Below, piece after piece: positions 1 through 21,503 of a stretch of DNA of 64,000 nt. The stretch covers positions 87,088,397-87,152,396 of the forward strand of contig CM097887.1 in the NCBI GenBank assembly GCA_044892525.1, written 5' to 3'. The position numbers were made by a program, and so were the translations under genes. The notes under the pieces were generated by a model. That model made no database searches, had not been told where the DNA came from, and was given only the letters and a program-made list of their open reading frames with translations. The stretch's first letter is position 1; each line of letters opens with the position of its first letter. The stretch is from Schmidtea polychroa (Eukaryota).

Positions 1-670
1 TCGTAAGATCGAGTTGTTGAATAGTCCAACCGATCAGAAGGAAGAAGATTGAGCTGTTGAATAGTGCCAGCCAGTCGTAAGGTCGAGTTGTGAAAAGTCC
101 AACCGATCAGAAGGAAGAAGATTGAGCTGTTGAATAGTGCCAGCCAGTCGTAAGGTCGAGTTGTGAAAAGTCCAACCGATCAGGAAGGAGGAAGATTGAG
201 CTGTTGAATAGTGCCAGCCAGTCGTAAGATCGAGTTGTTGAATAGTCCAACCGATCAGAAGGAAGAAGATCGAGCTGTTGAATAGTGCCAGCCAGTCGTA
301 AGGTCGAGTTGTGAAAAGTCCAACCGATCAGGAAGGAGGAAGATTGAGCTGTTGAATAATGCCAGCCAGTCGTAAGGTCGAGTTGTGAAAAGTCCAACCG
401 ATCAGAAGGAAGAAGATTGAGCTGTTGAATAGTGCCAGCCAGTCGTAAGGTCGAGTTGTGAAAAGTCCAACCGATCAGGAAGGAGGAAGATTGAGCTGTT
501 GAATAGTGCCAGCCAGTCGTAAGGTCGAGTTGTTGAATAGTCCAACCGATCAGAAGGAAGAAGATTGAGCTGTTGAATAGTGCCAGCCAGTCGTAAGATC
601 GAGTTGTTGAATAGTCTAACCGATCAGAAGGAAGAAGATTGAGCTGTTGAATAGTGCCAGCCAGTCGTAA
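1..670. repeat. Tandem array of ~9 copies of a 73-74 bp unit in the 5' non-coding region of the giant retroelement (runs off the window start)
   Basis: Unit TCGTAAG(A/G)TCGAGTTG(TTGAAT/TGAAA)AGTCCAACCGATCAG(G)AAGGA(A/G)GAAGATTGAGCTGTTGAATAGTGCCAGCCAG recurs at 1, 75, 148, 222, 296, 370, 443, 517, 591. Each unit contains two related GAGYTGTTGAATAGT sub-repeats. Confidence 0.95.
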
Positions 671-1973
671 AGGCCTAGAAAAGCGAGAGATAGCAGTTAA
701 GCTACAATGAGATAATATTTAAATTACTAGTGATATGGAATATTAAAGCTAGCTAGAACAAATTGAATGTAATTTTGAAAATTCGAGTTTAGAGAGGAAA
801 TAAACGAGCTCGTGGAAAAGAAAATAAGATTATAATGAAAAAGGAAAGGGAAGAAGGAAACGAATTAAAGAGATAATAGAAAATAAAGAATAGATGAAAT
901 GATGATAATGAGTAAAGAGGAAAGTAACTAACTAATTAAAGGGATCCCAGTGAAGTAGAGAAACTCTACGGAATTTTTTTGTAAACCGGGAAAATGTATT
1001 TTTACCGGTTCCAGAGTAGAACCGAGTGGGATAATAGTAAATACGAAAAGTAAAACAGCGACAACAGCGCAAAGGAATAAGAAAACGAAGGGGGGTAATA
1101 AGCAGAGACTGACAACGACCTATTTTTACTATAATTGATAACGAATAGATAATTATTACGACTTTATAGATAATTGTTACTACCCCATATAGATAATTTA
1201 AAATCGACGGAAAATACGGGCTGATGGGATATTATAACCCGCAGAAAGGATTTCACAAAAAGATAGGGGAAGCACAAACAGAAACCTAAAAGGCGTCTGT
1301 TTTTGAATGTTGTAGAAAGAATGATGAAGTCGTGTAAGCAAATGCAACACGAGATCATTTTTTCATTTTAGATATCAAGCCAATCCAGCCAACCAAGACA
1401 ATCCAGAACCTGCACAAAAGGAATTCGAAGAAATCGACAATCAACCAAGGATAAATCCATTCAGAACCCGCACCGAGAGACACAGCAACCGGAAGACTCC
1501 AGAACGGAAGAAGTATTAGCAGCCATCTGCCAAGGATTAGTAAATCTCCTCAGGATCTCAGTAGCAGATTCATACAGAATATTTATCGAAGGAAACACAA
1601 TCAGAACCGAACGCGTCCAATTCAATAGCCGCTAATTACCAAGAAGCGTAAGAAAGGAATCACGGATAAACCCAATCTTAGATCTTCTAGTAAGCCAGGA
1701 GACGTATTATTTTCAGGAGACGAATTACAACAACTCAAAAGAGGACGATCCATTAAACATCAAAGAGGAATATCACAAGGATCCAGAAGAACCAATCAAG
1801 TACCCATATTTGACCAAGAAAATCTCGGATATACCCCTAGTCGATCTCGAAGTAGAGAAAGTCTGTCCGATATCACTAATAGTTTAGCAACGTCAACCGA
1901 GGAGTTATCAGCCCAAAGTTTAGTCACATCGTTAGACAATTTAAAAGAAACAGACGAACCTAGAACACCAATC

Positions 1974-2879
1974 ATGACGAATGTCGTAAAAACCGACGAG
2001 TATAAAGAGAAGTTCAGAGGAGAACCTTTCAACGGAAACGCAAACAAGCTAGCATCGTTCATAACTAATTTTGAAGTTTATATCACTGTGTGTGGATGGA
2101 CACCCGAAGCAATTAGTAAAAGGATGCCGTTGTTTTTGTGCGATAGTGCATTAGAGGTATATTTAGAAGCTAAAGAGAGAGACACGAAATTAGAAAAGTG
2201 GGAAGATATTAAAACATTCCTGAAGAAAACCTTCGGAGCCAGTAAGCCAATCAACCAGGCGTTGGGCGAACTAGCAAATAGGAAACAAAGAGCAAACGAA
2301 TCGATAACATTATATGCCAGTGAATTGCGGAGATTAGCGAAGAAAGCAATGAATGGAAAATTACCCGAAGAAAATCTGATCGGTTATTTCATAGAGGGAT
2401 TACGCCGAGAAGAAGTAAGAGCCTCAGTAGGTTGTCAAATGTGCAAAACATTAGAGGAAGCCATAGATTGGGCTACAAGATGCGAGCTCCACCTTCCAGC
2501 TCAAATGAATATTATGCAAGAGGAGGGAAGGATAGCGACAGCAATAGCGAAAGCGGATAACGGAGATAACAACAATCAAGAACCGAAAATGAATCAATTT
2601 ATACCAGGAGCGCACCAAATTTTCAAACCACCACAAGGACGATCAAACGGGAATAATGGTAATCGTAACAACCCGAATAATGAGAACAATTTCAATAATC
2701 GGCGAAATATGAACGATAACAAGCAGTGCCGAACATGCGGTAAACCAGGACACTGGGACAGAGATTGTTATAGAAATTCAAATTGTAATCGTTGCGGACG
2801 GCGTGGACATACCGAAAATGTATGCCAATTGCGAGGCTGTTTTAACTGTGGTCAGCCAGGTCACATCTCCAGAGATTGC
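1974..2879 (+). other. gag: Gag: capsid-like domain plus three CCHC zinc knuckles
   Basis: PFNGNANKLASFITNFE...RKQRANESITLYASELRRLAKKA...FIEGL retrotransposon gag pattern. Knuckles CRTCGKPGHWDRDC (2727), CNRCGRRGHTENVC and CFNCGQPGHISRDC (to 2879). Confidence 0.92.
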
Positions 2880-5800
2880 CGAGAAAGGGGCCAACAACAA
2901 CGACCACCACAGCAAAATAATAATTATATAGCGAATCCGCAACGACAAAGTAACCCTAACGAAGGAAAACAAATGAACGTTATGCAGGAAATTTCGCAGA
3001 TGAAACAGATGATGCAACAAATGATGAGACCAAGACAAGAATCAGCACCACAACAAACCCAGAATATACGTATGATGAGGAGTACCGAAAATCTCAACAA
3101 TTATGAAGTGCATCAACATGTACAAGAATGGCAAAGGCTACAGGCCGAGGAAGAGAGGATAAAACAAGAACGCAACCAACAACGACAAGAACAACCATTG
3201 CGAATAAATATGATGAAGTTAGTAAAAGACATGAAGAGCCAGTATTGCTACAATTACGGGAAAAGCCCAAGGGTAGTACCCATGACTGAACCAGAAAAGG
3301 TAAAAGAAATAACAACGGAAATGAAAACAGAGAATTCAACCACGATTTTAAAAGGAAACCAGAGAATTCAGAAAATATTCTGGAAAAAGATAAAAGATAA
3401 AATCGAAAAAGAACATAATAAAGCGAAAGCCGAGACAGAAGATGAAAATAACAAGAGCAAGGAACAAACCAGTCAACTAAACCACCAAATGCTACAGGAA
3501 TTAGGATCAGAAGAAACAACGATATTCGAAAGAAAGAAACTAAAGAGAGTACCAAGGATGAGAAACTTGCAAATCAATATGATGAAAAGGACAAAAGATG
3601 TAGCATCGTCAGACGAGGAAGAAGACTATGTAAGTAGTTTGGGTGGAGAAATACTACAGCTGAATGAAATAAGCGAACCTCCAAAAGGGGAAATCAAAGA
3701 GGAAGAAGGCGAAAGCGAGATAACCAGCGAAAGTGAAGACGAGGATATCGAAATAAAGTTGAGAAAAGGGAAGGAGGAAGCGATAAAACAAGTAGCGGAA
3801 ATACTCCCAGTAGTAGTGAGGAACCAAGAGTTCATTGACGTAATACCATTCAGGCGATTCGTGCAAAAAGTGATGAAATTGGAAAGAAACGAGAAAGATT
3901 TAATACCAAACGAGGAAAAATCAATTATAAAAAATTATATGGAAAAAATGAAGCAGGCCGATACCACGCGGTATGTAATAAAAATCGGAACAAGTAGAGG
4001 ACTTGAAAGAATGTGGATAAAAAATACAGTCACCGACGAACTTTTCGATTGGATACGAGAGCATTTGGGAAGTTCGAGAAAGAAAGAATATCTGTATCAA
4101 TACCAAGGAGAACAGATCAAACCAGATATGCACTTAGTAGATGCACTAATATGGCCAGGAGAAACGCAAATACTGAAGTTGCATAAAGAAAAACAACCAG
4201 CCAACCTTTACGATTGGGCTAAAGATGCCAAGGCAGAATATGATTTTAATATCAAATTGAAATTAGAACAAATAAAACAATGTACTCTGAGACGAAACCT
4301 GGATAAGCTGATCAAACAAATTCAAGAACAAGTAGAAGACAACTGGGATTTACTCATCACCAGACGAGCCCCAGCCATGTACGAACTAATGAGCCGGTTG
4401 CGAGATACAGAAATGCTCCGAATGAGTGATTGGAGAACCATAAATTTGATCCACAAATATGGAAGGTTAAAAGAAACCCAGCCACAGAGGTTGGAAATAA
4501 CCATATGGTTACCGAACGAAGAAAAACGACGAATAAAAATGAGCAATCAGAGTACAGTGGATGACTTGGTATCAAAAATAAACCAAGAGATAACGGAAAA
4601 GGTACGTAGCGAAAGTAGTGATGGTATGGTGGATGATGTAGTCATGATGTACGATAAGATAATATTACGAGCGGAGGACGACACCTCGTTAAGCGAAATG
4701 GGTATGTGGGACAATCACCAGATAATCAGGATAGTACCAATGGATGAATTTCGAACAAGAGATGTAACCTATCAAAAAGAAATACGAGACCGGATGAAAA
4801 CGTTATATCAAAAATCTACGGAAATAATTAAAATCCACCAACAATGGTTAAAAGAAAAAGAACTACAAGGAAAAATCACGAAATTAAGCACCAGATCCTG
4901 CAGACGAACCCCATGGGAAAGAGTGTGGAATGCAGAAAGTAAGGAATGGGAAATCCGGAAAGGAACCTTCGTGGAAACAGACATTGGTGAGGCAGAAAGT
5001 GAATCGGAGGAAGAAGAAGAGGAACCTCCAAAATATGAAGAGGAAGCAAGGGAACAGACATCAGATGACGAAGGCGAGACGGATGTCACATCAGAAAGCG
5101 AAAATGAAGCGAGACATATTCATGCAATGAGGAAAAAGGAACGTGAATATGCTGATATGGACGGCGAGGAAGCGACGGAAGCAAGAGAACGAGAAGAGAA
5201 AGAAAGATATAAACAATTAGGCGATACCTTAGCAATGGGAGCGAAAAATCAAAGACGCCAAGTAGTAGCGTTGGCTAACATCATCTTAAAGACATCAGAG
5301 GACATCCACAATCTGAGAGGAATGGCAAAGGCAATAGAGGAATACCGGCAATATAATGAATGGTATCCAGAACAGCTAGAACAAATTATTCGAAAATGGA
5401 GAAATCAGGAATGGGCACAAGACACCCAGGAGAGGTATCACATCCGAATCAAGTATCCAGACAAGAGCATCGAGGAACTAGAGGTGCATCCAACAACAAA
5501 AATTAGAGAATTAAAAAAGAAATTAGCATATGAAACTCCATTCCATCTGCAACTGTTCGGAAAATCACTAGACGATAATGCAGACGTCGGGATAACCCCC
5601 ATGAGATTGGAAGAGACAAATGTATTAACAATGGCAGAAACGTTGGGAAAACCGTTAAAAAGGAAAAGTAAAATTATTAAACCAACAAAAGGCAGTTTGA
5701 GTACTCCAAGTCCGAACAAAGCACCAAGTAAATCTAATGAAACTGAAGAAGTTGAAGAGATAATCCTGGAAGATAGTGACGATGAACCAGGAGAAAGATC

Positions 5801-8800
5801 ACCGCTATTAGTGAGATGGCCGACAGGAGCCGAAATGTGGACTAACAACCAGCCATCAACGAGTTATCAACAACCAACGAAACTGAACATCGAAGAAATC
5901 ATCGACAATACTACGGAAACCGAAACGGATGAACAATTCCAGAAGCAAAGAGAACCAACGAAAGTAACACCAGAAAGTCAAACCGACAAAATAATAGACG
6001 AATGGAATGAGTGGCTAAGAAATAACGATAGCTCATTACCCAGAACGGATAACGAAAGAAATCCGAATTACGAAAATACCAGAGAAGCAGGAACGATGAT
6101 GGAAAAACGGGCAAAAGGAAGACCCAAGAAACAAGGAGAAAAGTCTGAGTTCAAAACCAAAGAACAATTAAAGCAAGAACAAGGGCAAGTTCGATTAGAA
6201 AAATTGGATAAAATAGTATGGGATCTAAAGGAAGCCCAACCAACGATCGAAAGAGGAGAAAAATGGATACGAGAACTGTTAAAAGATATGTTAATAATAA
6301 CAAACCCACAACTTAGACGTTTGTGGCAACGGAAAGTAGCCAGTACGGAAGCTAGACAATTATGGCACACCATTTCGGGGATAATCCCAAAGTTAATCAA
6401 AGAGAAAACGAAAACCACCAAAACGGATTGGGACGAAACAAAGAGAGTGATTGAGCAGCTCACGACAAATGCAAATGATGACGAGCATCACCTAGTGGTA
6501 ATCACTTATTTGATGTATAATTTGATGGGACTAGCTGCGAGGAAAATACCAAATAAACAGTTTGCAAATCATGTAGAAATGACCGTTTCAATCATAGAGA
6601 ATACTATTGAACCACACATTATTCGTGCAGGAGGATGGAAAAGACTGATACAAGCGCCACGGAAAAATGAGCAAGAAAGGTCGATGCAAGTTAGATTGAA
6701 AAAACTGTTAAATGAACTAGAATGGGAACTACCGATGAAAGATCCCGCAAGCAGAAAAGCATCAATAAATTCGTTAATGATGACTATGATGATATGGATG
6801 TTGTGCACAAGTGGAGCAACAGGTTTCACCATCTACGATTGTGATAACATGATAATGAGAGATAAATACTCATTGAGAGACATAGAAGAATGCAGACAAG
6901 CCTCACCCAACAAATTGGACATCGTGAGAACAAAAGTTACTTACCATGTATATCAAGAATCAGATTTCATCAGAACGCAAGCAAGGGAATGCGTAGTATC
7001 AAAAAAGGTACTCGCATATTACTGTGGACAATATTCGTATTCGACTCTTATACTACCCGGTCTGGATAAAGAAATCGTATCAATACAACGAGAGGATTGT
7101 AAAGAGCTATTTAGAACCGGAGCGCTAAAAATGCATAACGGAGTGACAATTCACGGACAAACTGGAATGATTAAAACCGAAAGTGTTTACGTATCCGGAA
7201 AAGTAAAATCATCAGATGGGTCATGTAACGGAGGTACGTATACGATCCGAGGCGAGGTAATATCGGGAGTTGTAGTGATCGAGTCTTACACGGTCGAATT
7301 AAAAGAATACGAAGCGCAATTTGACGCAAATAATTACCAAATGAAGACCAACCCAACGTGTAGAGCTACAGAAAACGTATGCAGGACAGGAGTATCAACT
7401 ATAATCTATGAAGCTAATACCCAAAAATGCCGACTCCAACTGTTAAAAAGTGCTTTGTTCAATGAAGTAAAAGGAGAAATATATGAGAACGAGAACGACG
7501 AGGATGGAAACGACAGAGTGAGAATGCGAAATGGAAAACCAATGCCACCATCTCCCAGAGAAAAGAGACTTTCAACGCAGAAGACACCAACAGCATTAAT
7601 CACAGACGATCCAGATCTAGGTATGAGATTTATCAAAGAGAAAGAAACCACCAAATGTGACAGTATAGTATATAAAACCAATTACGCAGGTATCTATATG
7701 TCGAGACAAATAATCGATAGAGCAGTGGGAAAGATAGCAACGGAGGACGTAAAACTATACTTATATGCAAATAATAAAATGGATTTTCTATTTCATCGCG
7801 GACAAACGACCTTGCAAAAAGTATATTACGATCTAATACAAAACGATTGTTCATTGAATAAAGAAATATTGAAAACAAAGCTAGCTATTGCGATAACGCA
7901 CCCAGATAACACGATGCCATCACTCCCATTACCAGATGGACACTTTGGTAGAATGGTAGGAGAAGTGATGTACACATACCAGTGTACCAAGACGTATGCA
8001 CGAATGCCAGAAAAATCCATACTACCCGAAAAGAGATGTGCAAATGAATTAGAAATCCGTTATAAAGGACAAAATCGATTCGTCCAACCAGTCACTAGAA
8101 TTATGAATCCAGTGGGTTTCTACCCAAATCTCTTTAACTGTTCTAATGCATACGGACCTTTATATGAAAGGCCCGATGGGAAATGGATGATGTTACCGGG
8201 AAAAACCATATCCGAGGAGCCCAAGAAATTTGGATTAATAGAACTCGCCACAGAGCTGGATTTCAAACCTATAGACGTGTCAAACGGTGGTATGTATTCC
8301 CCAGAAGATCTAGAAACAGCACGACTTAACGTACTCTTCCCAGCCAGACGAGAATCCATTTTGTCTAATATGGTAACAATAACTGGGGGCACAAACTATC
8401 AATCAGGCCCGAATTACGAGCTGCTATTATCGCCAGACCATTTTCAACAAGCTACGTCAAACATGATGAAAGCAATGTGGGGAAGATTCTTAGTTTTTGG
8501 ACAAATGATGGCCGGGATATTAGGGATCATACTCATAATTCAGATAGTCAGAGTAATACTAACACAAATGTTAGCTTGTTTCGATATATACAAGCGGGAA
8601 AAGAAAGTTAATTGGAAAATGATAGTAGGCTTCTTACCATTTTTAGCTAAGACCATGGTATTACATGGCCACTCAAAAGACATTCATCGGATAAAGCGAT
8701 TGATTAAAATATTAACAAAGATTAAAGGAACCGACGAAGAAGTAGGCAGACGATTCCGGAAAGTAATGTACGATGAAGTAACAAGACGACAATTGAGAAA

Positions 8801-11800
8801 GAATAAGCCAAAATTCTTGGACCGATTTAGAAGCCAATCATCTAACAGCGATAGTGACGACGATGATAACGGGAACGATAAATGTCTTTATCCAAACAGA
8901 AACCCAAACGAAAAACCAATGGAAACGGCACCATATTGGGAAAAGGAAAAGACAAACACCTGGATCGCCAATGGAAGCTATATACCACCGGATATCGTGG
9001 GACCACAAACAGCTTTGACCATGACACAAAATATGTATCCGCAATTACCGAGTCAACCCGGTATGCATTATATGCCAACACGACGTACCAAAAGTGTAGA
9101 TCAAGCAGATGACGTAAGAACAATAGCAGCGATGAGTTTACCTGGAGGTCCAGCAGTAACAGTTATGATTCAAATCAATGGTAAAGAAACCAATGCTATG
9201 ATAGACACCGGAGCTAATGTATCAGCGATAGCGATTAATCAAATCCCCAGTAAACACTGGAAGGATATCGAATCAACAACAATTCACATCATAGCATGTA
9301 GTAAAGAAACAGTGGACGTGGTCGGAAGATGGTGGACTACATTGAGATACCAGGACAACGAAATTGAAACGTATTTGGCAGTAATACCAAAACTTAGCGT
9401 ACCATGCATAATCGGAACGGATTTGATGCCAGAATTGTTAAAAGAAGTCGTAATTGACTTAACAACCATGTGTTTAAAAGACAAAACCGGTAGAATATGC
9501 AAAATGAATGCAGTCATCAGATGTCCAGGAAAAATAATAGTACCAGCAAAATCACAGATGATTTGTCAGATAAAAGTGGATACGGGTATGGAAGGAGAAG
9601 TTATCTTTGAACCAAGCAAGTCATTTGAAAAGCGACGAGAATTACCACTCGCAAGAGAAATAATCACAATAAACCAAGAAGGAGTGATACCGCTCAACAT
9701 CACGAATTTCGAAGAGGAAGACAAAATCATTTATGAGAACGAAAAATTGGGAAGATTGACCCCAATGATGGACATAGAATTACCGAAAGTGACCAACGAG
9801 ATGATCAAAGATGATGAATTATGGACAATAGATAGTATGTTGTTGACGAATGACGAAAAGAAAAAATTGCACCGATTGTTGGTAGAATATAAAGATATAT
9901 TCGCCATCTCAGATTTAGACTTGGGTACATGTGATGTTACCTTACATGCAATACCACTCATAGACGAAACCCCAATTGCATTGAGACCATACAAGCTAGC
10001 AGAAATGCAGAAAGAAATAGCCGAAACAGAAGTACAAAAGATGCTAGACGCAAAAGTAATCGAACCAAGTTGCTCACCCTGGCAATTCCCAGTGGTCATG
10101 GTGAAAAAGAAAGATGGCACCCAACGATTCTGTATCGATTATCGGAAGTTAAACGCAGTGACCAAGAGAGATACCTATCCATTGCCGGACATCAATGAGA
10201 TGTTATTGATGTTGCAAGGGGCAGCATATTTTACTTCTTTAGATCTAAAAAGTGGATACTGGCAGATTAAAGTCAAAGATGAGGACAAAGAGAAAACAGC
10301 TTTCACGTTGGGACGAGATCTATATCAATTCAGGAAAATGCCATTTGGACTGACTAACGCACCAGCATCATTTCAACGGTGTATGAACTTTGTCACCCAT
10401 GGAATCAAACAATGTATGGTATATATTGATGATTTACTAATCTATTCAGCGACATTTGAACAACATATGGAAGATATCCGAAACGTATTTATTAGATTAA
10501 GACAGTGGAAACTCAAACTCAAACCATCAAAATGCGATTGGGCAAAGGAAAAAGTCACGTTTTTAGGACACATAGTGTCAGCTAAAGGAAAGGAGCCAGA
10601 TCCAAGAAACATTGAGAAAATAAAAACATGTCCAGCACCGAAAACTGTCACCCAAGTTCAGGAATTTCTAGGATTATGCGGATACTATCGCAAATTTATC
10701 AAAAATTATGCAGGAATTGCAAAACCAATCCAGGAATTAGTAAAGAAGGACATTTCGTTCTTATGGGGGAAGGAACAACAAGAGGCGTTTGAAACGCTGA
10801 GAGACAAACTAATCGAAGCACCTATCCTCGTACACCCAGATTTTAAGAAGCCATTTCTATTGGCAACGGATGCAAGCGGGTACGCGGCAGGCGCGATTCT
10901 GGGACAATTAGACGATGAGGGAAAAGAGAGAGTAATCGGGTATTACAGTCGAACATTCAAAAAGCACGAAAAGAACTATTCGGTAACAGAACGAGAAGCA
11001 TTGGCTATAATACAAGCTATCAAACACTTTCGATATTTACTATGGGGACATGAGATATGCATAACCACAGACCATCAACCATTAGTGTGGTTAGGGCAAC
11101 ATAAAGAAGCGTCCAGTAGACTGATGAGATGGGCCATGCAATTGCAAGAATACTCCCCATTTATAAAATTTAAAGCGGGAAGAGCAAATGCCAACGCTGA
11201 TTGTATGTCAAGATTTATTTTCCCAGATTTGGTGGATTCAGAAATGCAACGCATATGCTTAATAGTAGCGGAAGATTTGGATTTCTGTCAATTGCGAAAG
11301 GACCAACAAGAGGACGCGGAATTAAAACAAATTATCGATTATATAAAAACCGGACAGACAGATGTATATGCGAAAGACCAAAAATTAAAAGAACATATGG
11401 ATAAACACCGACACCGATATATTATAGAGAAAGATTGGTTGCTGATAATGGATGGGGAAAAACGATTAATGTGTATACCGGAAAACCGACGAAAAGAGTT
11501 ACTAACGCAATATCACGATGGGAGATTGGGAGGACATATGTCATCGAAAAAGACGTTAGCAAGAATGAAACAGAAATATTTTTGGCCTACGTTAACGGAA
11601 GATGTAACCGAATGGGTAAAAAATTGTCTAACTTGTGCAACCAGGAAGAATACGGGATCGAAATGGAAAGCACCTTTAACGCCAATGCCAGTACCAATAG
11701 AACCAATGACAATGATATCCATGGACGTAGTTGGTCCACTACCAGAGTCAGATAAAGGAAACGTTTACATTCTGGTGATCACAGACTTTCTTACGAAATT

Positions 11801-14800
11801 TCCAGAAGCATTCGCGATGCCAGACCAAAAAGCTAAAACAATCGCCAAAATTCTGGTAGAAGAGATATGTTGCCGATATGGAACACCAAAACAGATATTA
11901 ACCGATCAGGGAACTAATTTTATGAGTGAGATAATGAGCGAAGTAACAAATTACTTCAAAATAGCAAAACTAAGAACATCTCCATACCACCCTCAAACCA
12001 ATGGGATGACGGAAAGATTTAATGGAACACTTATACAAATGTTATCAAACTACGTTGACCGTCACCAACGAGATTGGGACGAATATATAAACCTATGTCT
12101 TATGGCGTACAGAATGTCGATTCACGCATCAACGAAAATGAGCCCATTCAAATTAATGTACGGAAGAGAATGTAATATGCCAATGGACCTGGAATACCAA
12201 CCACCGATATCGCAGTATATGGAGATCGATGATTATGTTACGAAATTCAAGGAAAGAATGCAAGAAATTTGGGAAACTGCGGGATTAAATATCAAGTTCT
12301 ACCAGGAAAGTTATAAAGATTTACACGATCGAAAGAAAAACGTGAAGCAACATACGTTCCAAACAGGTGATTGGGTAATGATAGAAACCCCGGAATTAAT
12401 TCCAGGAACCACAAAAAAGTTACAACGCAACGGAAAAGGACCATATGAGATCTTATTCGTAGGCGAAACTAATGTAAGAGTGAAATTGGTAAATAACCCC
12501 TTTACCAGACCAATATACGTAAACGTGGCACGATGCAAATCAATTCCAAAAACAGCCACTAGTCAACCAGAAGGCCGTACATTAACCACACGTTCGCAAA
12601 CCTACCGAATGAACATGATGCAACAACTCGCAGAACCGATCACCGGACGATTGGGTATCCAACCATCAGAAGCGGAAAAGATTGTAAAAGAGGTAAAAAT
12701 TAAAATACCTGGATGGGCGAAAGATCGATTAGATTTCGAAATATTAGGAGGATTATTGACGATGATCGAGAACTATGCAAATAGAGAAAGGACACACCCA
12801 TTATTGCGAGTAGTCAAAAGCCAATGGCCAATATTATTTACAATAACAGATCATTACGGAGACACACCATTACACAAACTCATGAAAGTAGGTAACAACG
12901 AGCAAATACTAGAAACAATAGAAGCATTTCACGACTGCAAGCGATCAACAGAACAAACAAACAACCAAGGTTACACACCATTAATGATAGCCGCAAACAG
13001 AGGCAAAACAAAAGACATTATAACCGCATTACTCGATACCGGATCGAAAATAACTACACAAGACCACGAGCGGAAAAACGCTCTACATCATGCTATCAGA
13101 GGGAGAAGTACCGAGGCGTTCACGTCATTGATGGAACTACTATCATATGAGGACAATCGGGAAGTCGGAAACATGTATGATGGATTGCTAACAGCGATCA
13201 AAGAAAAACTGACGACAATTACCGGAATATTAATTACATGGAGAAATCCAATTCGAAACGATTATATGATCAACGTAAACGAAGCGTTCACGAGAGGAGA
13301 GAACACGCTGATGAGAGAAGCTATGAAAGGACATCATTTATTCGAAATCCCGAATCAATTACTAGAACGAGGTATAAAATTCACAAATCACAAAGACGAA
13401 CAGTTAACAAAAAAGCGAATCGACACATTCGAAAAATCACTATTCCAATTTACTAACCAAGTACGACATAAATATTGGGAAACAGTAAGTGTGTTATATA
13501 TGATGGACACGATGAATAACATCCGCGAGAATTACATGGATATTATCCAAATACTTACAGCAGAGGAACGAATCAATAATCCAAACGGAAAGAAAACGAA
13601 AATAAGGTATGAGAAATCCAGGGAATCAAAGTCAACAACGAACCAAACGGTCACAAACAACGTCATCGAAACCAAATCAATGAGTATAGATCAAGAGGCA
13701 ATAATACGCAAAGCAAAAGAAGTGTTCTTTGAGGAAATGCTAGAGCTGCCAGACGAAATAATATTGTCCAAAATAATAAAAGCCGTACACACATACGCAA
13801 GAGATCAAACCACGGGTTTAGATATCGGGAAAATCAAAACCTTCTTGCCTCGAGCATTTACGATGGTAACGAAGGATTCCCGAACACCCCTACAACAAGC
13901 AATACTAGGTGCAAAAGAGAATAGAGCAATAACGATCATGAGAATCCTTGGGGAGATGGGCGAGGAAACCAACACGAAAAATGAACAAGGTGAAACCGCC
14001 ATGATGTATGCAGCTATAACGAAAATACACCCAAAAACACTCCACATCCTACATCAATCAGGATCGAAACTAGACGAAAGGTCCAATGAAGGAAATTCCA
14101 CCTTGGACTGGGCAACCATACAGCCAAACTTAGAAATGATCAGATTTATTTGCAAAAATGCGACAGAAGAAGAAGTTGAAAATATGTGCAAAAACACATC
14201 TCAGTTTCAATGGAATACGGTACGGAAAAATCTAGAAGCAATGAAATTATTATTAACCTGGAGAGTACCACCAAATAATAAATATGCGATAAATGTAAAC
14301 GAATTCTACGAAAACGGAGAAAATGCGATGGTAAAGAATACCCTAACTAAGGGGGGGACGCCTAAAATTATTTTAATAGTATTAAATAGAGAAGACCTAA
14401 AATTCACGCAAAATCAGAACGAGCAACAACGAATTGGGAAACATCGTCGTATGCAATTGAGAGAGTTAGTTAAAGAATGGAATAGAAAGAGACATGCTGC
14501 AACGGGTAGAAAAGAGTTTGAATTCGAAGCAAAATTAGCAAGAAACAGAGTGCTAACAGCATATCGCAGATTATTGAACGATATAAATGTCGAGGACGAC
14601 ATTTTAAATGACAGCAAGGGAGATAAACACGATGACAATAACGGAAAAGACCGAAAGGAGGATAAAGAGAAAAGAGAACCGGAGGAGGGTAAACCAGAAA
14701 ACAAGGATTCGGATACGAAAAGAGAGGGAAACAGCCCGAGAACCAAGACCAAAGAGGAGGAAAAATCGAATAATGGAAAACAGAGGGTATGCCTACCTTT

Positions 14801-15827
14801 CACTAACAAAGAAATAGAGACAAATATGATATTAATGATAATTATGCTTACCATGATAGAGTTAGTAACAGCTCAGGGAGGGACGAGAACGATAAAAGAA
14901 ACCAAAGAAGCGGAGAATCAAGATAGCAAAGAGGATGAACTAAAACAAGAAAAGAGAAAGCAAGCACAAGAGCAGCAGTGGGATTTAAAGGAAGAATGGG
15001 ACTTAAAGGAAAGGTGCATACTAGGAAGATGCATGTCTAGAGCGTATCAGAAACTAGTACTGATAAATGAGGACACAGAACCAATAACAGAAGTAAGAAT
15101 ACAAGAAGCATACCGAAATCGAGACGGGAAGAGAATAACGAACGTCAAAGGAAAAGAGGTACACCTAGGAAAAGGTGGTGAAGTAGTAATAACGCAGATC
15201 CAACCTAGAAAAGAGCACAAAGTCTGTATTTCAAGATTAGGACCAGGTGAGAGATGCCATCAATATGTGACGCAGCAGCAGCCGCCGAAAGAATACACGG
15301 TTTGTATCTGGAGGAATGAATCAAAAAGAGAATGCCGACGATACCCGGGGAAAAGAGGAAGGAAAAGAAAAAACCACGACGAAAAGAACGAAGGAGGAAA
15401 GCACAAGAAAACTGGTGAGGAAGCTCAGGACAACTATGTTTCGGAGGAAGAGATGGAAAAAATACAAAAGATGGCAAAGGAGGGTATGAACGAGGAAATA
15501 GCAAGAATACGGGAAATGATGAAAGGAAATGGCAAAAGAGGAAACGAGAAAAGTACAGAAGCGATATCAACATTAACCAACAAGGAAAAACCAGAGAGTA
15601 TAAGCGTGAAGCAGATGATGTGGATCAGTGGGATAATAATAACAGGGGCATTCCTAATCATAACGGGGGGAACAATAAAAATAATTAAAGATAAACGACA
15701 TCGCGGAGAACTAGAAATGACCCGAATCAGAAACTTCCAACATCGAGTGAAACGACCAAGTGATATCAAACAAGGACAGTGGGTGGAGGCCTGGAACGTT
15801 CAGCGCCCTCCAAACTCACGTATATAG
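1974..15827 (+). CDS. 4617-aa Gag-accessory-Env-Pol-ankyrin polyprotein
   Basis: Single open frame; retrotransposon gag capsid, 3x CX2CX4HX4C, DTG protease, YIDD RT, DAS RNase H, HHCC + DDE + GPY integrase and ankyrin repeats are all recognisable. The frame is also open upstream to 1629 without an ATG. Confidence 0.95.
   Translation: [4617 protein letters not shown]
3966..5640 (+). other. Three ubiquitin-like (beta-grasp) domains inside the polyprotein (~3966-4187, ~4491-4739, ~5436-5639)
   Basis: By-eye match to the ubiquitin pattern: [28 protein letters not shown]...[43 protein letters not shown]...[10 protein letters not shown], and a weaker first copy ([25 protein letters not shown]). 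No C-terminal di-Gly. Confidence 0.6.
6264..6650 (+). other. Bcl-2-like helical domain (divergent, viral-type)
   Basis: Ends in BH2-like [15 protein letters not shown] (GGW at 6630-6638), preceded by a hydrophobic helix [13 protein letters not shown] at the BH1 position. The canonical NWGR motif is absent. Confidence 0.6.
6765..8660 (+). other. env: Envelope glycoprotein, chuvirus-glycoprotein / herpes gB-like class III fusogen type, in frame upstream of the protease
   Basis: Internal signal peptide ([18 protein letters not shown]), then FTIYDC...YSLRDIEEC...YYCGQYS...DGSCNGGTY...YANNKMDF...CSLNKEIL...GEVMYTYQC...RCANEL...FVQPVTR...C..AYGPLY..W, the Cys/motif pattern of chuvirus-like glycoproteins. 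TM segment [25 protein letters not shown] at ~8487-8582. Confidence 0.8.
9150..9450 (+). other. Retroviral aspartic protease
   Basis: [23 protein letters not shown] (DTG at 9204) ... CIIGTDLM. It is followed by the dUTPase-fold-like spacer common in gypsy pol (~9510-9760). Confidence 0.93.
9960..11215 (+). other. Reverse transcriptase and RNase H (Ty3/gypsy type)
   Basis: [51 protein letters not shown], YIDD (10422-10433), FLGHIVS. RNase H: [40 protein letters not shown]. Confidence 0.97.
11490..12540 (+). other. Integrase (HHCC, DDE core, GPY/F tail)
   Basis: YHDGRLGGH...CLTC; [37 protein letters not shown]. Confidence 0.97.
12800..14340 (+). other. Two duplicated ankyrin-repeat modules C-terminal to integrase
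   Basis: [26 protein letters not shown]; then [25 protein letters not shown]. Both modules end in the shared motif L(I/L)TWRxPxxNxYxINVNExxxxGEN (~13227 and ~14247). Confidence 0.85.
14826..15827 (+). other. C-terminal type-I membrane protein segment of the polyprotein
   Basis: Signal-like [17 protein letters not shown], Cys-containing luminal part with FN3-like [15 protein letters not shown] / [36 protein letters not shown] (~15615-15686) and a basic tail. Confidence 0.55.
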
Positions 15828-15987: not shown

Positions 15988-16347
15988 ATGGATCAAGGAA
16001 ATAACGAAATGAACCACAATACAGTAACTGAAGAATTATGGAAGCAACAATGTGCCGTATTAGCACAATTAGTGTCCAATTTGCAAGAACAAGGACTGAC
16101 GATGCACAGAAACCTGATCGAGAGTATGAACAGAGGATTTAGTTATTTGAAGATAATTGAAGACCAGAGGTTAAAAATCGAACAAATGCAAAGAGAGATA
16201 GAGAGGATAACCCAATATAGCCGTCGACAGGAAATTGAAATAGACCGAATGAGGGAGGAAGCGGAACAGACAGAAATAGAAGACTGGTCGGAATGGCTAA
16301 TGAATAGAGAGGAGAGCGGGCACGAAGCCGACTCTTCCGAACCCTAA
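15988..16347 (+). CDS. Accessory ORF2, small coiled-coil protein of unknown function
   Basis: Clean ORF with element-like codon bias and heptad-rich IIEDQRLKIEQMQREIERITQY. First ATG is at 15988; the track starts at TTG 15964. Confidence 0.65.
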   Translation: MDQGNNEMNHNTVTEELWKQQCAVLAQLVSNLQEQGLTMHRNLIESMNRGFSYLKIIEDQRLKIEQMQREIERITQYSRRQEIEIDRMREEAEQTEIEDWSEWLMNREESGHEADSSEP

Positions 16348-16432: not shown

Positions 16433-17821
16433 ATGGATAAACGACAAAGAGAAGAGTTCAGAGAGATTGTCGAGCAAGTCCGAAAATCTACAACGATCAG
16501 AATACACAAACATGTTATGTGCGGAATATGTGAAAAGTTGTTAAAGGAACCTCACCAAACGCAATGTGGATGCAGAGTATGTAAAGAATGTATCAGTGAA
16601 GCAATAAAGAATAGACCACAGAGGTGCCCGGTGTGTAAAGAGACACTAATATCGAGTTTAGAAGACACTAACGAGGATAAAGCCGCAGTGAAAGACATGT
16701 TAAACACCAACCTGGGATGCAAAAATGCCCCATGCGAATGGAAAGGAGTAATATGGAAGGTAGTACGACATATGGGAGAATGTATGTACAGAATTGGCCA
16801 GTGTGAAAGGTGCCATAAAACCATTCGAGCAAGCGAAGAAAAAGAGCATCAAAGGCAGTGTGAAGAGAGATTGGAAAGATGTGAACACTGTGGAGAAATA
16901 GATACGTGGATAAATCTCACCCTCAAACATCACAATGTCCAAGAGGAGAGAGTATGTGCAGAGTTCAGTGGGGAATGCCCAAACGGATGTAACCAAGGGG
17001 AAATAATGAAGGTGGCACAGCATCTAAGGGAATGCGCAAAGAAAAGAATGACATGTGTACTAGGTAGATGGGGTTGTCAGAAACTACTACACCGAGGTGA
17101 GTTACCACATCATTTAGTAGAAAATGCTTCAACTCACGCAGAAATGTGGTCGACTGCGCTACAAGAAAGCGAAGAGAAAGTAAAACAAATGGAGATAGAG
17201 ATAACATCGTTGAAAGTGTTAGTCAAAGAACTACTAGAAGAAAGGGAAGCGTTCGAAGAAGCCCGAGCAAACATAAAGATGCAAATAAACCGAACAGAAA
17301 TCAGTAATAATCAGGCCAAGGAGCTACATCAGAAAATACGGGAAATAAATCTAAATGAGATAACCCCAACAGCACCCTACATATGGAAAATAACGGGAGT
17401 AAAAGAAAGAATACGAAAAGCAAAAACCGGAGAAGAGACAAGAATAACAAGTCCTACATTCCATTCTTGGAAAAATGGGTACAAAATGAAAATGAAGGTA
17501 TATCCCAACGGGGACGGAACCGGATTGGATACGCACTTTTCGATTTTCTTTCTGTTATGTAAAGGAGAATACGACGAAATATTAGAATGGCCGTTCCAGG
17601 CAAAAATCGATATTACTCTGATGAACAACCAAAGTATACATGAGCAAAGCTTCAAAACAACGGGGAATCAAATAGCTTACCAGAGGCCCCTCAACGAAGA
17701 AGGATCAGCAACAGGAGCACCTACGTTCATCTCACAACAAAGAGTAGAAGATATGGCGAGAAATGATACCATATATATCAAGATGACCGTGAGGAAAGAG
17801 GAGAAGGGTAGAACGGAGTAA
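16433..17821 (+). CDS. TRAF: Full-length intronless TRAF-family protein carried by the retroelement
   Basis: RING CGICEKLLKEPHQTQCGCRVCKEC...CPVC, tandem TRAF zinc fingers, coiled coil, and MATH domain YIWKI...SPTFHSWKNGYKMKMKVYPNGDG...THFSIFF...GEYDEILEWPF. Confidence 0.95.
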   Translation: MDKRQREEFREIVEQVRKSTTIRIHKHVMCGICEKLLKEPHQTQCGCRVCKECISEAIKNRPQRCPVCKETLISSLEDTNEDKAAVKDMLNTNLGCKNAPCEWKGVIWKVVRHMGECMYRIGQCERCHKTIRASEEKEHQRQCEERLERCEHCGEIDTWINLTLKHHNVQEERVCAEFSGECPNGCNQGEIMKVAQHLRECAKKRMTCVLGRWGCQKLLHRGELPHHLVENASTHAEMWSTALQESEEKVKQMEIEITSLKVLVKELLEEREAFEEARANIKMQINRTEISNNQAKELHQKIREINLNEITPTAPYIWKITGVKERIRKAKTGEETRITSPTFHSWKNGYKMKMKVYPNGDGTGLDTHFSIFFLLCKGEYDEILEWPFQAKIDITLMNNQSIHEQSFKTTGNQIAYQRPLNEEGSATGAPTFISQQRVEDMARNDTIYIKMTVRKEEKGRTE

Positions 17822-18013
17822 CCAATCGAATAATGTTGTATATAATAATCTGTATATATCGGTGTATATAACCAATAAAATATTATATAATAATAGTATG
17901 AAAACCCTAAATACGAAAACCCAAAAATGATGCGAAAATTTCCCAAGAAACAGTAAATAATAAATAAATTCCTTTTCATAATAAAAAGATTAATCGATGT
18001 CTATGATTTAGAG

Positions 18014-19069
18014 ATGACACAAGAGAAAATAACCGAAACTGCGATAGCCCCAACCAATGTCAACAAGACACAAATTCCCCGGGAACATAATAAAAAATGG
18101 AACAAAGTAATGTTCCAACTAACTAATCTCACCCGAAATCACATCGAAGAAACTAGAGAAGATGAGAATAGTCAATACCAATGGTTAATACACAACTTAA
18201 GAGCGGAAGCAGAAGCATGCAAAAGAGCATCAAAATGGGCGTCACTAGAAAATACCCGCCAAGAAGCACACAGCCACTACTTAAAGCAGCTAGTGCAGGA
18301 AGCGAGAAAAAGACTTACCGATGAGAACACCAAGCGCGAAGCGGAAAAACAAATAGAAGACAGGAAAACGATGCACTTAGTGGCAGAAGCGAGAAAATGG
18401 AAAAGACAAAACAGAGAAATGAAAAAAGAGATGAAAGAATTGCCCATGAGACTCGGATATGAAAGCGAACAAGGTAAATGGGAGGAGAATTTAATAATAA
18501 AGGAAGAATTGAAAAGGTTGAGAAAGGTCGCCGCCCGAAGCCAAACCTGGCAAACAAAGGCTATGGAGTTTGAGCGACATTTGGCAATGAAGTGCGACAT
18601 AAGAGAGCACGAGAATGCCGCAATGGAAGAGATGATAACCCAACAAGCGGGACGGGTTGTGGAATTAGTAAATCAGGTAGAAGAGATGAAAAGAGACCTT
18701 AATGGATTACAAGGATCGCTGGAACAAAGAAACATGGTCCTAGCGGGAAAAAACAGAAAATTAGAAAACGAAAGGAAAATGTACACCGAAAATATTAAAA
18801 ACTTAGAAATAGAAATTGAAAAATGGAAGGGCGACGAGAAAATCAAGGCCCTAGACAAACAGATAGAGGCGAAAGACGAAGAGACAAGGTATCTCACCTA
18901 TCTGCTCGACGAGGAATTGAACATCACTCGAGCTCTAAGAGACGAAATTAATGAGTTGAGAGCTCAAATCCCCCAATATTACCTACCATACGACCCTATT
19001 GCGATACAGTTACATCCCGCGGTCGATAGTGATGAAGGGTATGTAGGCCAGGAGGAAACCTTCGTATAA
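18014..19069 (+). CDS. Accessory ORF4, long coiled-coil protein of unknown function
   Basis: 351-aa intact ORF, E/K/R-rich heptads over most of its length, element-like bias. Confidence 0.75.
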   Translation: MTQEKITETAIAPTNVNKTQIPREHNKKWNKVMFQLTNLTRNHIEETREDENSQYQWLIHNLRAEAEACKRASKWASLENTRQEAHSHYLKQLVQEARKRLTDENTKREAEKQIEDRKTMHLVAEARKWKRQNREMKKEMKELPMRLGYESEQGKWEENLIIKEELKRLRKVAARSQTWQTKAMEFERHLAMKCDIREHENAAMEEMITQQAGRVVELVNQVEEMKRDLNGLQGSLEQRNMVLAGKNRKLENERKMYTENIKNLEIEIEKWKGDEKIKALDKQIEAKDEETRYLTYLLDEELNITRALRDEINELRAQIPQYYLPYDPIAIQLHPAVDSDEGYVGQEETFV

Positions 19070-19240
19070 GGGTGGATGAAAAAAAATGAAAAACCAAAAA
19101 CCGGGAAGTATATCCCAAACAAAAAAAATTAAAGTATTGTAAAAGTATTCAAAGGACTGTAACCCAAACTATTAAATTTTATATCAATGTATACGTATAA
19201 GTCGCACTATAGCGCATCATTAACTGTACATATTATAGAT

Positions 19241-19939
19241 ATGAAAATCGAGGAAATGATAGAAATTATGAGCGACGTAGAAGAGGGAGAGATTGAGGCA
19301 GAAACAACAGAAACACAAACGATAAAGGCCGAGTTACGGGAAGAGAAATACGAAAACGGGAGATTAATAAACAAATACCTGGAGGACCGGAAAATGATAA
19401 AGGTGTTAAAGAAAGAGTGCGAAGCGTTGGGGGAAATAAAAAGAGAAACGGAAGAGGAAAATGAATGGCTACACGAACAAAGGAAGCGAGGGAAAAACTG
19501 GGAAAAGATAGCGGAAGAACTATGGAAAGAGAGGGCAAGCTTCAAAGCAAAGGAGGTAATCCAAGACTACTGGAAAACTGAGGCGAAGGAGCGCCAAACA
19601 GCTATAAATAAATTAAAACGACAACTAGAAGAAAACCAACGGGAAAGTAAAGAAATGAGGAAGTGGGTCCGCAAATATAGAGAAATAGAAAGAAAACATC
19701 AACAACAAAATTACCTGCAAGAAAACGAACAAGATCTCCTACAAATCGAGCTAAAAAGAAACCTTGAAAAGAAAAGGGAAGAAATTAGACGCTTGGAAAA
19801 AGAAATTAGACATCTAAAGAGAGAAGCCCGTGAAAAAGACCGACAATTGGAAATGCTGCCCGAGTTAAGACACAGGGTAATTAAAGCAGAGTCCACCTTG
19901 ATGAGAATCGGCGAAAATAATCCAAATCAGAACCATTAA
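19241..19939 (+). CDS. Accessory ORF5, coiled-coil protein of unknown function
   Basis: Intact ORF (track start 19187). The ATG at 19241 follows an acceptor-like TATTATAG. Heptad-rich. Confidence 0.7.
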   Translation: MKIEEMIEIMSDVEEGEIEAETTETQTIKAELREEKYENGRLINKYLEDRKMIKVLKKECEALGEIKRETEEENEWLHEQRKRGKNWEKIAEELWKERASFKAKEVIQDYWKTEAKERQTAINKLKRQLEENQRESKEMRKWVRKYREIERKHQQQNYLQENEQDLLQIELKRNLEKKREEIRRLEKEIRHLKREAREKDRQLEMLPELRHRVIKAESTLMRIGENNPNQNH

Positions 19940-19994
19940 ATTAAGGGTCATTAAAACCAATTGTAAATAAACATAATGAATGTATAATAGTATC

Positions 19995-20648
19995 ATGCGA
20001 GGCGAGATGATGATAACAATGATGGTATTGATGATTCTGATGGAGAGCAAACAAATAGACGCCCAACCGAAAATCGTACGAGATTACCGAAATCAAAATC
20101 AAGAACCTAAACAAGAATCCGGTCAATGCACATACCCGATGACCGTAAAAACCCATATCATCCAAACCATTCAATCAACCCGATCACACATCAACAACAT
20201 CCAAACAATGTGTAAAAAGAATCCCATTTGTAAAATGATAAACAAACAAATCCTCGAACAAATTCAACAATTCGACCAGTTGGAACAACAAATGCAACAA
20301 GAGAATTTTGGAAATCTGGTAGAAAAGCCAAAAACACCTCCCGAAATCAATGACACCCACTATCTCATATATGTGGTGATCGCAGAGACCCTCCTCCTAT
20401 GTCTACCAATATTCATGAAAATTTACGAAGTTCGAAATAGATGTAGAATCTCGACATCAATAAGAGTAACCTCGAACCAAAATCCTCAAGAAGTGCCCCT
20501 GACAAATCTTAACCCAACCCCATTCCGACCTCGAACCCCGAGTAATCAACCAATCCAGCCGAAATCTAATAGTCAGACCTATCTCAACATCAATACCCAA
20601 ACCAACCAACAGCCGCCAGCAGAAGCATCAATGGTTAACAATTCATAA
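19995..20648 (+). CDS. Accessory ORF6, putative type-I membrane protein
   Basis: Met-rich signal-like MMITMMVLMILMESKQIDAQ, short Cys-containing ectodomain, TM YLIYVVIAETLLLCLPIFM, and P/Q/N-rich tail. Confidence 0.65.
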   Translation: MRGEMMITMMVLMILMESKQIDAQPKIVRDYRNQNQEPKQESGQCTYPMTVKTHIIQTIQSTRSHINNIQTMCKKNPICKMINKQILEQIQQFDQLEQQMQQENFGNLVEKPKTPPEINDTHYLIYVVIAETLLLCLPIFMKIYEVRNRCRISTSIRVTSNQNPQEVPLTNLNPTPFRPRTPSNQPIQPKSNSQTYLNINTQTNQQPPAEASMVNNS

Positions 20649-20873
20649 ACTCTAATTCAAACATTTGTGTTATTATATGTGGAAACTTTTATTGTATGTA
20701 CCAACTATCACCTTAAGTGATACTTGCTTGGTCTTGCTTTGACCTTGATCTTACAATAAAATTTTTATCATTGTTGTATAATTTTCCGTGTTCGTGTTAT
20801 ATTTTTTTTGAATGAATGAATTAAGTTAATTATGCAATTGCGGGACGCAATTTTGATGGGTCCCCGAGTGATT

Positions 20874-21503
20874 TGTTGGGCTGAGTCGAAAATTTAATCG
20901 TTGAAAAATAAGAAAGTAGGGAAGTAGAACATTAAGAAAAATAAAAATAAAATAAATAAAATCAGAAATAAAATAGAATAAGATATAAGGAAAATAATAA
21001 TTAAGACATAAGAATTAAAACAAAAAATAAAATTAAGAAAAGATTAAAATAGAACAAGTTGACAAAGAAATAAAGAGGAATTCAAGAAATAATAAGGAAA
21101 TTAAGGAAATAAATAGAAAAACATATTAAAAATAAAGAAAATAAGGAAAAAACAACCTAAAAACAAGAAAATTATATTAAATTAATAGAAATAAGCGGTA
21201 CTCAACTCTGATTGGTCCGCACAAATAAGAATTTGATATATATACAACTACCAAAAACATTAAATTTACTGTTAACCCCGAGCATTTCATAGGTAAGAAA
21301 GAATGTTTACTGTTTTTACTGTTAACCCCGAGCATTTCATAGGATCGACACTACTAGCCAAGCAACCGTCATTCAGAAAACTCCACAACTATTCAAAACC
21401 AGTTCAGAGACCGAAATACCATTCATCACAATAATCGACATCCAACGGACCACCATTAGAACTATTTGGAACGAACAACATTGAATTTTGACTCAGCCTA
21501 ACA
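20874..21503 (+). repeat. Putative 3' LTR (630 bp) of the giant element
   Basis: Starts TGTTGGGCTGAGTCGAAAATT and ends AATTTTGACTCAGCCTAACA (~20-bp imperfect terminal inverted repeat, TG...CA). It lies ~225 bp after the last ORF and after a TTGCG-GGA-CGCAA hairpin of the kind often seen before gypsy PPTs. The partner LTR is not visible. Confidence 0.7.
21205..21300 (+). promoter_or_regulatory. Candidate LTR promoter and splice donor
   Basis: Reverse CCAAT box (ATTGG 21211-21215), TATATATA 21237-21244, then a 29-bp direct repeat (21265-21293, 21315-21343) whose first copy ends in AG|GTAAGA (donor GT at 21293). Confidence 0.5.

Follow-up and report, generated by a model that had tools for sequence, protein, structure and literature searches.

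A recent Burro-type Ty3/gypsy element of Schmidtea polychroa with a predicted class III fusogen in its polyprotein and seven accessory genes that are probably spliced

The Burro elements of Schmidtea mediterranea, the largest animal long terminal repeat (LTR) retroelements in the review that describes them, exceed 30 kb and carry a 4,873-aa first open reading frame (ORF1) with Gag, MATH, ubiquitin/SUMO-like and BCL-2 regions, an in-frame env and ankyrin repeats; the env matches mononegavirus glycoproteins, accessory ORFs are present, and the elements are regarded as probable proviruses in need of experimental proof (PMC6431247, 2019). PMC13524379 classes flatworm GAG-ENV-POL elements as herpes simplex virus (HSV)/glycoprotein B (gB)-type and lists six from S. 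mediterranea. A passage in PMC8532177 reports that BURRO1 transcripts rise upon RNA interference (RNAi) of smedwi-2, and a 2026 report, as cited in a passage of PMC13465017, has the Burro1 BIR-RING (inhibitor of apoptosis, IAP) protein protecting stem cells. The subject of this analysis is a related element at the start of a 64,000-nucleotide stretch of Schmidtea polychroa DNA (assembly GCA_044892525.1, contig CM097887.1, positions 87,088,397 to 87,152,396, forward strand; hereafter the window). It is read here as a recent, intact and active Burro-type Ty3/gypsy element with a class III fusogen in its polyprotein, likely an enveloped endogenous virus, whose seven accessory genes are probably expressed as separate spliced mRNAs; the probability assigned to this reading as a whole is about 0.65.

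Membership in the Burro group is almost certain from the architecture, as compared with the published layout and not with the named consensus sequences. Like Burro1/GYPSM1 and Burro2-4, the element is about 30 kb long, with multi-kb LTRs, a single polyprotein in the range of 4,600-4,900 aa, an env in frame between a putative Bcl-2-like region and the protease, ankyrin repeats after the integrase (IN), tandem repeats in the leader, accessory ORFs and TRAF/MATH cargo, here in the form of a free-standing full TRAF (PMC6431247). It is not Burro1 itself, but belongs to a family sister to Burro1: a Pfam scan finds no MATH in its ORF1 and no BIR in the window ORFs scanned, and there is no BIR-RING (IAP) ORF. 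By contrast, a 35-kb Burro1-like family in the same genome has MATH inside ORF1, LTRs of 4.75 kb against 3.84 kb, and a 392-aa BIR-RING ORF that has no counterpart between the TRAF and coiled-coil ORFs of the window element; the two are 57% identical in ORF1 and 88% identical in reverse transcriptase (RT) and RNase H (RH).

The window element also shares with the HSV/gB-type errantiviruses of Platyhelminthes a Ty3/gypsy Pol, a gB-type Env between gag and pol, and multiple intact copies, but the six S. mediterranea elements of PMC13524379 span 14.5-18 kb and are given with no LTR or PBS (primer-binding site). Judged by eye and not by alignment, the window Env domain resembles Smed_errantivirus_5, and the 35-kb family resembles Smed_errantivirus_6, both listed there; the words 'Burro', 'accessory' and 'splice' do not occur in the main text of that paper.

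Giant size, in-frame env, the TRAF, ankyrin, Bcl-2 and ubiquitin-like (UBL) cargo and the provirus idea are already in print (PMC6431247), as are gB-type gag-env-pol elements (PMC13524379). An earlier reading of the window from its letters alone (the sequence-only reading) had described a giant, env-bearing, virus-like element; its headline traits were published for Burro, and the novelty is low. Added here, and perhaps not all new, are the precise layout of the element, evidence that env and most of the cargo are under selection, the prediction of a second membrane protein, and a candidate splice-acceptor code for the cargo genes. A test of the provirus idea can now start from exact ends, a known primer tRNA, at least 169 copies of a young family, signs of continuing selection on env and most cargo, and predicted splice junctions.

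Ends, age and copies of the element

With 8.5 kb fetched from upstream, blastn places the full element at 29,997 bp from LTR to LTR, extending beyond the 5' side of the window. The 5' LTR (G000:C3:87083115-87086956) lies 5.3 kb upstream of the window and is identical to the 3' LTR (Table 1); the same 4-bp target-site duplication (TSD) flanks the pair. Seven nucleotides after the 5' LTR, the PBS is complementary at 18/18 nt to the 3' end of host tRNA-Pro(TGG), including the CCA. No purine run is found in the sequence before the 3' LTR, where a conserved hairpin-like motif stands instead. The sequence-only reading had ended the element at 21503 with a 630-bp terminal repeat, expecting upstream a 5' LTR, a PBS and a TSD that would match the ATAG(T) after 21503: the LTR and the PBS are present, but the terminal repeat is an LTR of 3,842 bp, the CA at 21503 closes a stretch within the LTR that nearly repeats the LTR start in inverted orientation, ATAG(T) is LTR sequence, and the TSD is GTAA. 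Paired TG...CA LTRs, a short TSD, protease (PR), RT, RH and IN after gag, and a tRNA-derived PBS make this a Ty3/gypsy (Metaviridae) element. Its sense strand is A-rich, as had been noticed: the AT skew of the 1-kb bins across 1-21,000 never leaves the range +0.22 to +0.51, whereas it is near 0 in the host flank.

The recent origin claimed in the sequence-only reading is supported by the identical 3.84-kb LTRs, the TSD, the exact PBS and many near-identical intact copies; transposition of the family is still going on or ceased only very recently. The count of genome copies that the same reading had called for gave 169 occurrences of the exact 33-nt 3' junction in the genome (G000), with 0 for reversed controls; the LTR-PBS junction occurs 66 times at one mismatch or fewer, and a looser pre-LTR motif common to related families 1,127 times (reversed controls 0). 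Matches to a PBS 15-mer (2,679) were rejected as a copy number because 2,167 tRNA-Pro-like gene matches overlap the pattern; tRNA-Pro(TGG) itself forms a long tandem array from G000:C1:130.90 Mb onward with a 475-bp unit. Candidates for env number 2,581 in the genome, including smaller families with unrelated cargo.

Fifteen other copies were fetched, all from the 40 best matches to the TRAF ORF, a choice biased to young copies. The full 4,617-aa frame is kept in 12, which are 29.6-30.6 kb long; two are truncated or rearranged, and one has lost RT-RH-IN in frame. Paired LTRs, 99.76-100% identical, are present in 13/15, with a 4-bp TSD in 13/13, and the copy number of a 74-bp array in the leader is the main source of length differences. 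The copy that lacks RT, RH and IN (G000:C3:113.36 Mb, loss of window 9632-13425) has identical LTRs and a TSD, and possibly moved in trans. Three copies (G000:C2:118.88, C1:78.54 and C1:184.60 Mb) bear a second LTR type of ~4.15 kb, the middle of which (LTR ~470-2560) cannot be aligned to the window LTR although the internal region is 98.5% identical; this is LTR module swapping by recombination. Two TRAF ORFs 26,212 bp apart (G000:C2:177699304 and 177725516), about the element minus one LTR, are a tandem element pair sharing an LTR.

A sister family has identical gene order and 87% ORF1 identity, and the Burro1-like family keeps a common order of RING, ORF1, short ORF, TRAF, coiled-coil ORFs and membrane ORF. 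An RT-RH tree of 20 rows joins the window element, its sisters and the Burro1-like family in one clade (100/100), with deeper forks open. Smaller relatives of 14-18 kb (G000:C1:110146001-110186000, C3:85538001, C1:158640001 and C2:30729001) have 1-kb LTRs, a different PBS and a single gag-UBL-Bcl-2-like-env-pol frame of 3,319-3,346 aa; they have the in-frame env but no accessory ORFs related to those of the window family, so that the in-frame env is older than the giant cargo. A 15.6-kb element (G000:C1:5728807-5744374) with 1.6-kb LTRs and the same PBS and pre-LTR motif encodes nothing more than a 760-aa Gag-like ORF. Its variant of the pre-LTR motif turns up often in the first 100 of the 1,127 motif matches, and the element is probably a numerous, non-autonomous parasite of the Burro group.

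The polyprotein, its envelope protein and selection

The 13.85-kb stop-free frame noted in the sequence-only reading is confirmed as ORF1, at 13,854 bp and 4,617 aa. Its Env ectodomain was modelled with AlphaFold2 from 123 aligned sequences (mean pLDDT 88.4); the model matches chuvirus-type glycoproteins (best E 2e-33, TM score up to 0.65) and, more distantly, herpesvirus gB (best E 1e-13, TM score ~0.4), and 14 cysteines are nearly invariant in the alignment. By its predicted fold Env is thus a class III fusogen, like the glycoproteins of chuviruses and other Monjiviricetes and herpesvirus gB in modelled structure and cysteine pattern, but only 15-20% identical to chuvirus G and ~10% identical to gB, and embedded in a polyprotein where theirs is a free gene. 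Queried in a protein word index, Env alone gave 0 matches, the env region of ORF1 gave seven unnamed matches and TRAF one unnamed match; a scan of metagenomes found no relative.

Selection was measured as the ratio of nonsynonymous to synonymous polymorphism (pN/pS), with variants counted column by column among 16 copies and six non-coding controls ranging from 0.34 to 1.90. The ratio is 0.06 for env, 0.07 for Pol and 0.07 for the Bcl-2-like region; it lies at 0.10-0.20 for gag, the UBL region and the ankyrin/C-terminal part (0.15), and is 0.11 for the second membrane protein at the C-terminus. Among the accessory genes, the values are 0.10 (ORF119), 0.18 (TRAF), 0.12 (351-aa ORF), 0.19 (250-aa ORF) and 0.20 (LTR ORF). 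Env remains 89-90% identical to that of the sister family at a synonymous divergence (dS) of 1.6-2.0. Env and most of the cargo are therefore under purifying selection, env being constrained like Pol, and the fusogen proposed in the sequence-only reading is supported by predicted structure and by selection.

Of the cargo labels in that reading, TRAF (RING and MATH) and ankyrin (Pfam E 3e-16) stand, and Bcl-2-like and UBL find weak matches. For the Bcl-2-like region, a profile search of the PDB has Bcl-xL at the top (E 0.03), and although the model is weak (pLDDT 52.6), its first 18 Foldseek matches are all Bcl-2 family members (E 0.06-0.4); with the same model as query, a second aligner (VIA) did not list Bcl-2 among its matches. 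Pieces cut out of the UBL region match ubiquitin (E 0.006) and PI3K_rbd (E 0.004), both below the Pfam cut-off, and its segments are 40-47% identical to counterparts in the Burro1-like family. The dUTPase-like region published for Burro has no match in the element. Upstream of the Gag ATG, the frame is open in 12/12 copies with a locatable start, its ACG being kept in all of them and in one sister copy, and its dN/dS is 0.22 in frame against 0.74 and 1.14 off frame; this frame is possibly a non-AUG extension of Gag.

A hydropathy-predicted transmembrane (TM) helix (aa 2180-2196) follows the Env ectodomain, and the polyprotein ends in a predicted second membrane protein whose signal-like and TM stretches recur in the sister and Burro1-like families; it belongs to no known family and has no usable Pfam or Atlas match. 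The Env helix and these C-terminal stretches point to a membrane-threaded polyprotein with a cytosolic Pol. The Gag, UBL and Bcl-2-like parts would lie in the cytosol, Env in the lumen of the endoplasmic reticulum (ER) behind an internal signal, PR-RT-RH-IN and the ankyrin repeats back in the cytosol, and the small membrane protein at the end; signal peptidase and the element's own protease would then cut the chain. A protease-site motif matches 11 times, where shuffled sequence gives 3.5 on average and 12 at most, but the pattern was chosen post hoc and is suggestive only. The signal-like stretch ahead of Env passes the hydropathy threshold only in the Burro1-like family (1.54).

Accessory genes and acceptor-like sites

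The five intact downstream ORFs of the sequence-only reading (119, 462, 351, 250 and 222 aa) are confirmed, and two that it missed bring the accessory genes to seven: a 262-aa ORF inside the LTR and a 161-aa RING ORF (zf-C3HC4_3, E 3e-11) in the leader, upstream of the window. That the downstream ORFs are unrelated host genes is rejected; as supposed earlier, they are the element's own genes, lying between the LTRs in the same order in 15/15 fetched copies (ORF119 in 14/15) and in sister families. The TRAF ORF is similar to TRAF3/2/1 (E 1e-27) and, in its RING region, to TRAF6 (E 9e-15); a MATH tree of 12 rows resolves no host donor, and its deep forks are open. Of the 110 copies of the 222-aa ORF that reach at least 91% identity, 100 are free of stops, and the frames of this ORF and of the RING ORF stay open in a sister family at 34-41% identity. 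A search of the genome for MATH gave 1,551 candidates, with many identical-length frames among the matches listed; the four such frames that were fetched all lie inside elements. TRAF/MATH matches being often element-borne, caution is advised in such genomes, which bears on the planarian TRAF expansion reported in a passage of PMC6109357.

Most accessory ORFs begin just behind a sequence resembling a 3' splice acceptor. A rule that asks for YAG ending 0-6 nt before an ATG within the first 25 codons, with at least four T and at most one G in the preceding 10 nt, is satisfied by 17/22 accessory ORFs from three families (shuffle mean 1.8, maximum 8), against 3/430 internal windows and 13/394 non-coding ATGs. 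In six further elements, checked in between, 14/25 starts satisfy it, with 0/2 for the non-autonomous family. Because the rule was post hoc, 12 further diverged copies were fetched as a held-out set, fragments without an N-terminus being excluded: 23/43 starts satisfy it against 0/211 internal ATGs (shuffle mean 4.1, maximum 10), among them TRAF 6/7, the 351-aa ORF 5/6, the 250-aa ORF 7/7 and the LTR ORF 3/8 (6/8 at 10 nt). Exchanges between CAG and TAG at these sites preserve the AG. In the window, the predicted acceptor AGs of the accessory genes directly precede 15988, 16433, 18014, 19241, 19995 and 23429, and that of the ORF1 leader is at 1371. ORF1 too has a strong acceptor-like site in its leader, 602 nt before its ATG (579 nt in the 87% sister family), the last upstream ATG being 632 nt before ORF1; a sequence resembling a splice donor occurs around LTR position 418.

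The simplest reading of these sites is that the accessory genes are probably expressed as separate spliced mRNAs, by cis-splicing or by spliced leader (SL) trans-splicing. One long transcript would be resolved at the acceptors into monocistronic accessory mRNAs, either from the LTR donor or by a host SL, and the spacers between the ORFs, 55-192 nt long, would supply the poly(A) signals. A passage of PMC12582326 reports SL trans-splicing in S. mediterranea and mentions a stem-cell-enriched SL RNA; the flatworm SL-resolved operons described there likewise place genes on one strand at distances below 300 bp, each downstream gene being preceded by an acceptor, but here the arrangement lies inside a retroelement. 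Flatworm SLs end in ATG, and acceptor-to-ATG distances here are mostly 1, 2, 4 and 5 nt, so that an SL-borne ATG would mostly be out of frame, which leans slightly towards cis-splicing. If the acceptors take an SL, this would be a retroelement using host operon processing, and the stem-cell-enriched SL RNA could link expression of the cargo to neoblasts. Among the papers listed in searches for splicing of Burro cargo, judged by title and opening of the abstract and, for PMC12582326, further, none deals with it.

Table 1. Features in and around the window (positions are those of the window unless stated)
Feature	Position	Strand	Evidence or remark
74-bp tandem array, 5' leader	1..670	+	Tandem Repeats Finder, 9.1 copies, 95%; starts ~30 nt before the window
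Strong 3' splice-acceptor-like site	1357..1371	+	No ATG between it and the ORF1 ATG; putative function
ATG-less in-frame N-terminal Gag extension, putative ACG start	1662..1973	+	104 codons upstream of Gag ATG
ORF1, gag-env-pol polyprotein	1974..15827	+	No stop or frameshift
Gag and CCHC zinc knuckles	2127..2882	+	Retrotrans_gag aa 52-145; Pfam E 3e-9 and 8e-10
Weak ubiquitin-like region, up to three segments	3966..5678	+	Sub-threshold Pfam
Bcl-2-like helical domain, weak but consistent	6171..6713	+	Pfam E 0.03-0.06, below cut-off
Env, predicted class III (gB/chuvirus-type) fusion ectodomain, 14 Cys	6843..8582	+	PF24664 E 6e-70
PR, RT, RNase H, IN in Ty3/gypsy order	9162..11993	+	Pfam RVP, RVT_1, RT_RNaseH, Integrase_H2C2, rve
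Ankyrin repeats, two blocks	12897..14147	+	Ank_2 E 6e-19
Predicted second membrane protein, polyprotein end	14823..15665	+	Signal-like aa 4284-4300, 6-Cys ectodomain, TM aa 4548-4564
ORF119, 119-aa coiled-coil ORF	15988..16347	+	Homolog in Burro1-like family
TRAF ORF, 462 aa, full-length, intronless	16433..17821	+	Pfam RING, MATH; zinc fingers, coiled coil
351-aa coiled-coil ORF	18014..19069	+	33% identity to Burro1-like 532-aa ORF
250-aa coiled-coil ORF	19187..19939	+	Likely start Met19, behind acceptor-like site
222-aa ORF, fast-evolving, predicted type I membrane protein	19980..20648	+	Signal-like and TM stretches (hydropathy)
Conserved hairpin-like motif	20838..20873	+	In place of classical polypurine tract
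3' LTR	20874..24715	+	3,842 bp, TG...CA ends; blastn 100% over 3,842 bp to 5' LTR
Internal inverted near-copy of LTR first 22 nt	21482..21503	-	CA at 21503 ends near-copy
262-aa ORF inside LTR	23393..24181	+	Likely start Met13; no known family; homologs in sister families
TSD GTAA, 4 bp	24716..24719	+	Identical 4 nt precede 5' LTR
Broken intronless suf/CstF-77 fragment, N-terminal half	25383..25970	+	83 matches genome-wide, most such fragments
hAT transposase remnants flanking insertion	37406..38325; upstream piece L001 1656-2351	+; -
Host gene exons, DDT, PHD, WSD domains (BPTF/BAZ-like chromatin factor)	45304..55471	-	Pfam

Competing readings and genomic surroundings

The preferred reading of a recent, probably enveloped Burro-type element with spliced cargo is weakened by several points. 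It draws on sequence and on structural models. Intactness is overstated by choosing copies among the 40 best matches, and the Bcl-2-like and ubiquitin-like labels are weak, their matches being consistent but below curated cut-offs. The internal signal before Env falls under the hydropathy threshold in the window's own family, and the topology could be altered by another hydrophobic stretch that follows the Env TM helix. The pN/pS of the RING ORF (0.32, p 0.06) and the 222-aa ORF (0.45) is not clearly below the non-coding controls. As for splicing, the acceptor rule was framed only after TAG or CAG had been noticed at ORF starts; the starts are homologous (~8 groups), so that the counts speak of conservation and are not independent trials; held-out ORF119 (0/5) and 222-aa (2/10) starts mostly depart from the rule; and the spacer excess of AATAAA (6.3 per kb, with TGTA at 18.6, against 1.4 and 3.2 in ORF1) is measured against coding sequence and not against AT-matched non-coding DNA.

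In the preferred reading, Env would take particles from cell to cell within a single animal and into its stem or germ cells, and the TRAF, RING, ankyrin and Bcl-2-like proteins would damp host immune and death signalling, and the element may be infectious, as the sequence-only reading had proposed. A fuller version, a complex retrovirus that relies on the RNA processing of flatworms, with a gB-type fusogen cut from a membrane-threaded polyprotein, cell-to-cell spread and a seven-gene operon resolved by host SL, is a good deal more doubtful. It is about as unlikely that the element transposes only within cells, its Env being kept for another job, such as membrane anchoring of assembly or cell-cell contact, with no free infectious particle. 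A budding virus would not usually make Gag, Env and Pol in equal amounts by way of a single frame, and the RT-RH-IN-less copy and the gag-only paired-LTR family imply that much of the copy number can stem from intracellular help in trans; however, the whole Env ectodomain keeps its predicted class III fold and its cysteines, constrained like Pol, and smaller relatives at ~49% RT identity retain this in-frame env.

The acceptor-like sites would look different if short internal promoters drove the accessory ORFs, the AT-rich motif with its AG being promoter or translation-start context. TATA-like repeats in the spacers would fit this, as would the AAG, not YAG, that mostly precedes ORF119 in diverged copies. 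In contigs from four runs (three of them guessed to be RNA and one of unknown kind, mostly 90-95% alike) the matches listed show no joint or loose end at the acceptors, which is uninformative either way. Yet the distance from AG to ATG varies (0-9 nt), TAG and CAG interchange, the different upstream sequence of the variant LTRs again ends in a pyrimidine tract and YAG, and TATA-like words this near the ATG leave no space for a usual Pol II start, so that internal promoters seem improbable next to splicing. Least likely of all is that the cargo has been domesticated for host benefit, selection acting through the host and not through replication of the element. The stem-cell-protecting Burro1 BIR-RING protein, as cited in that passage of PMC13465017, is a precedent, but the window family lacks the BIR-RING ORF that the Burro1-like family carries at the corresponding place, and constraint that extends over many young insertions, scattered and each with a TSD of its own, is what selection during replication produces; the two kinds of selection are not mutually exclusive.

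Beyond the TSD, a fragment of suf/CstF-77 lies in the 3' flank (Table 1). Insertion into an intron of a host suf/CstF-77 gene was considered and rejected, the neighbour being one of ~80 broken fragments dispersed through the genome, a distribution that suggests capture by another repeat.

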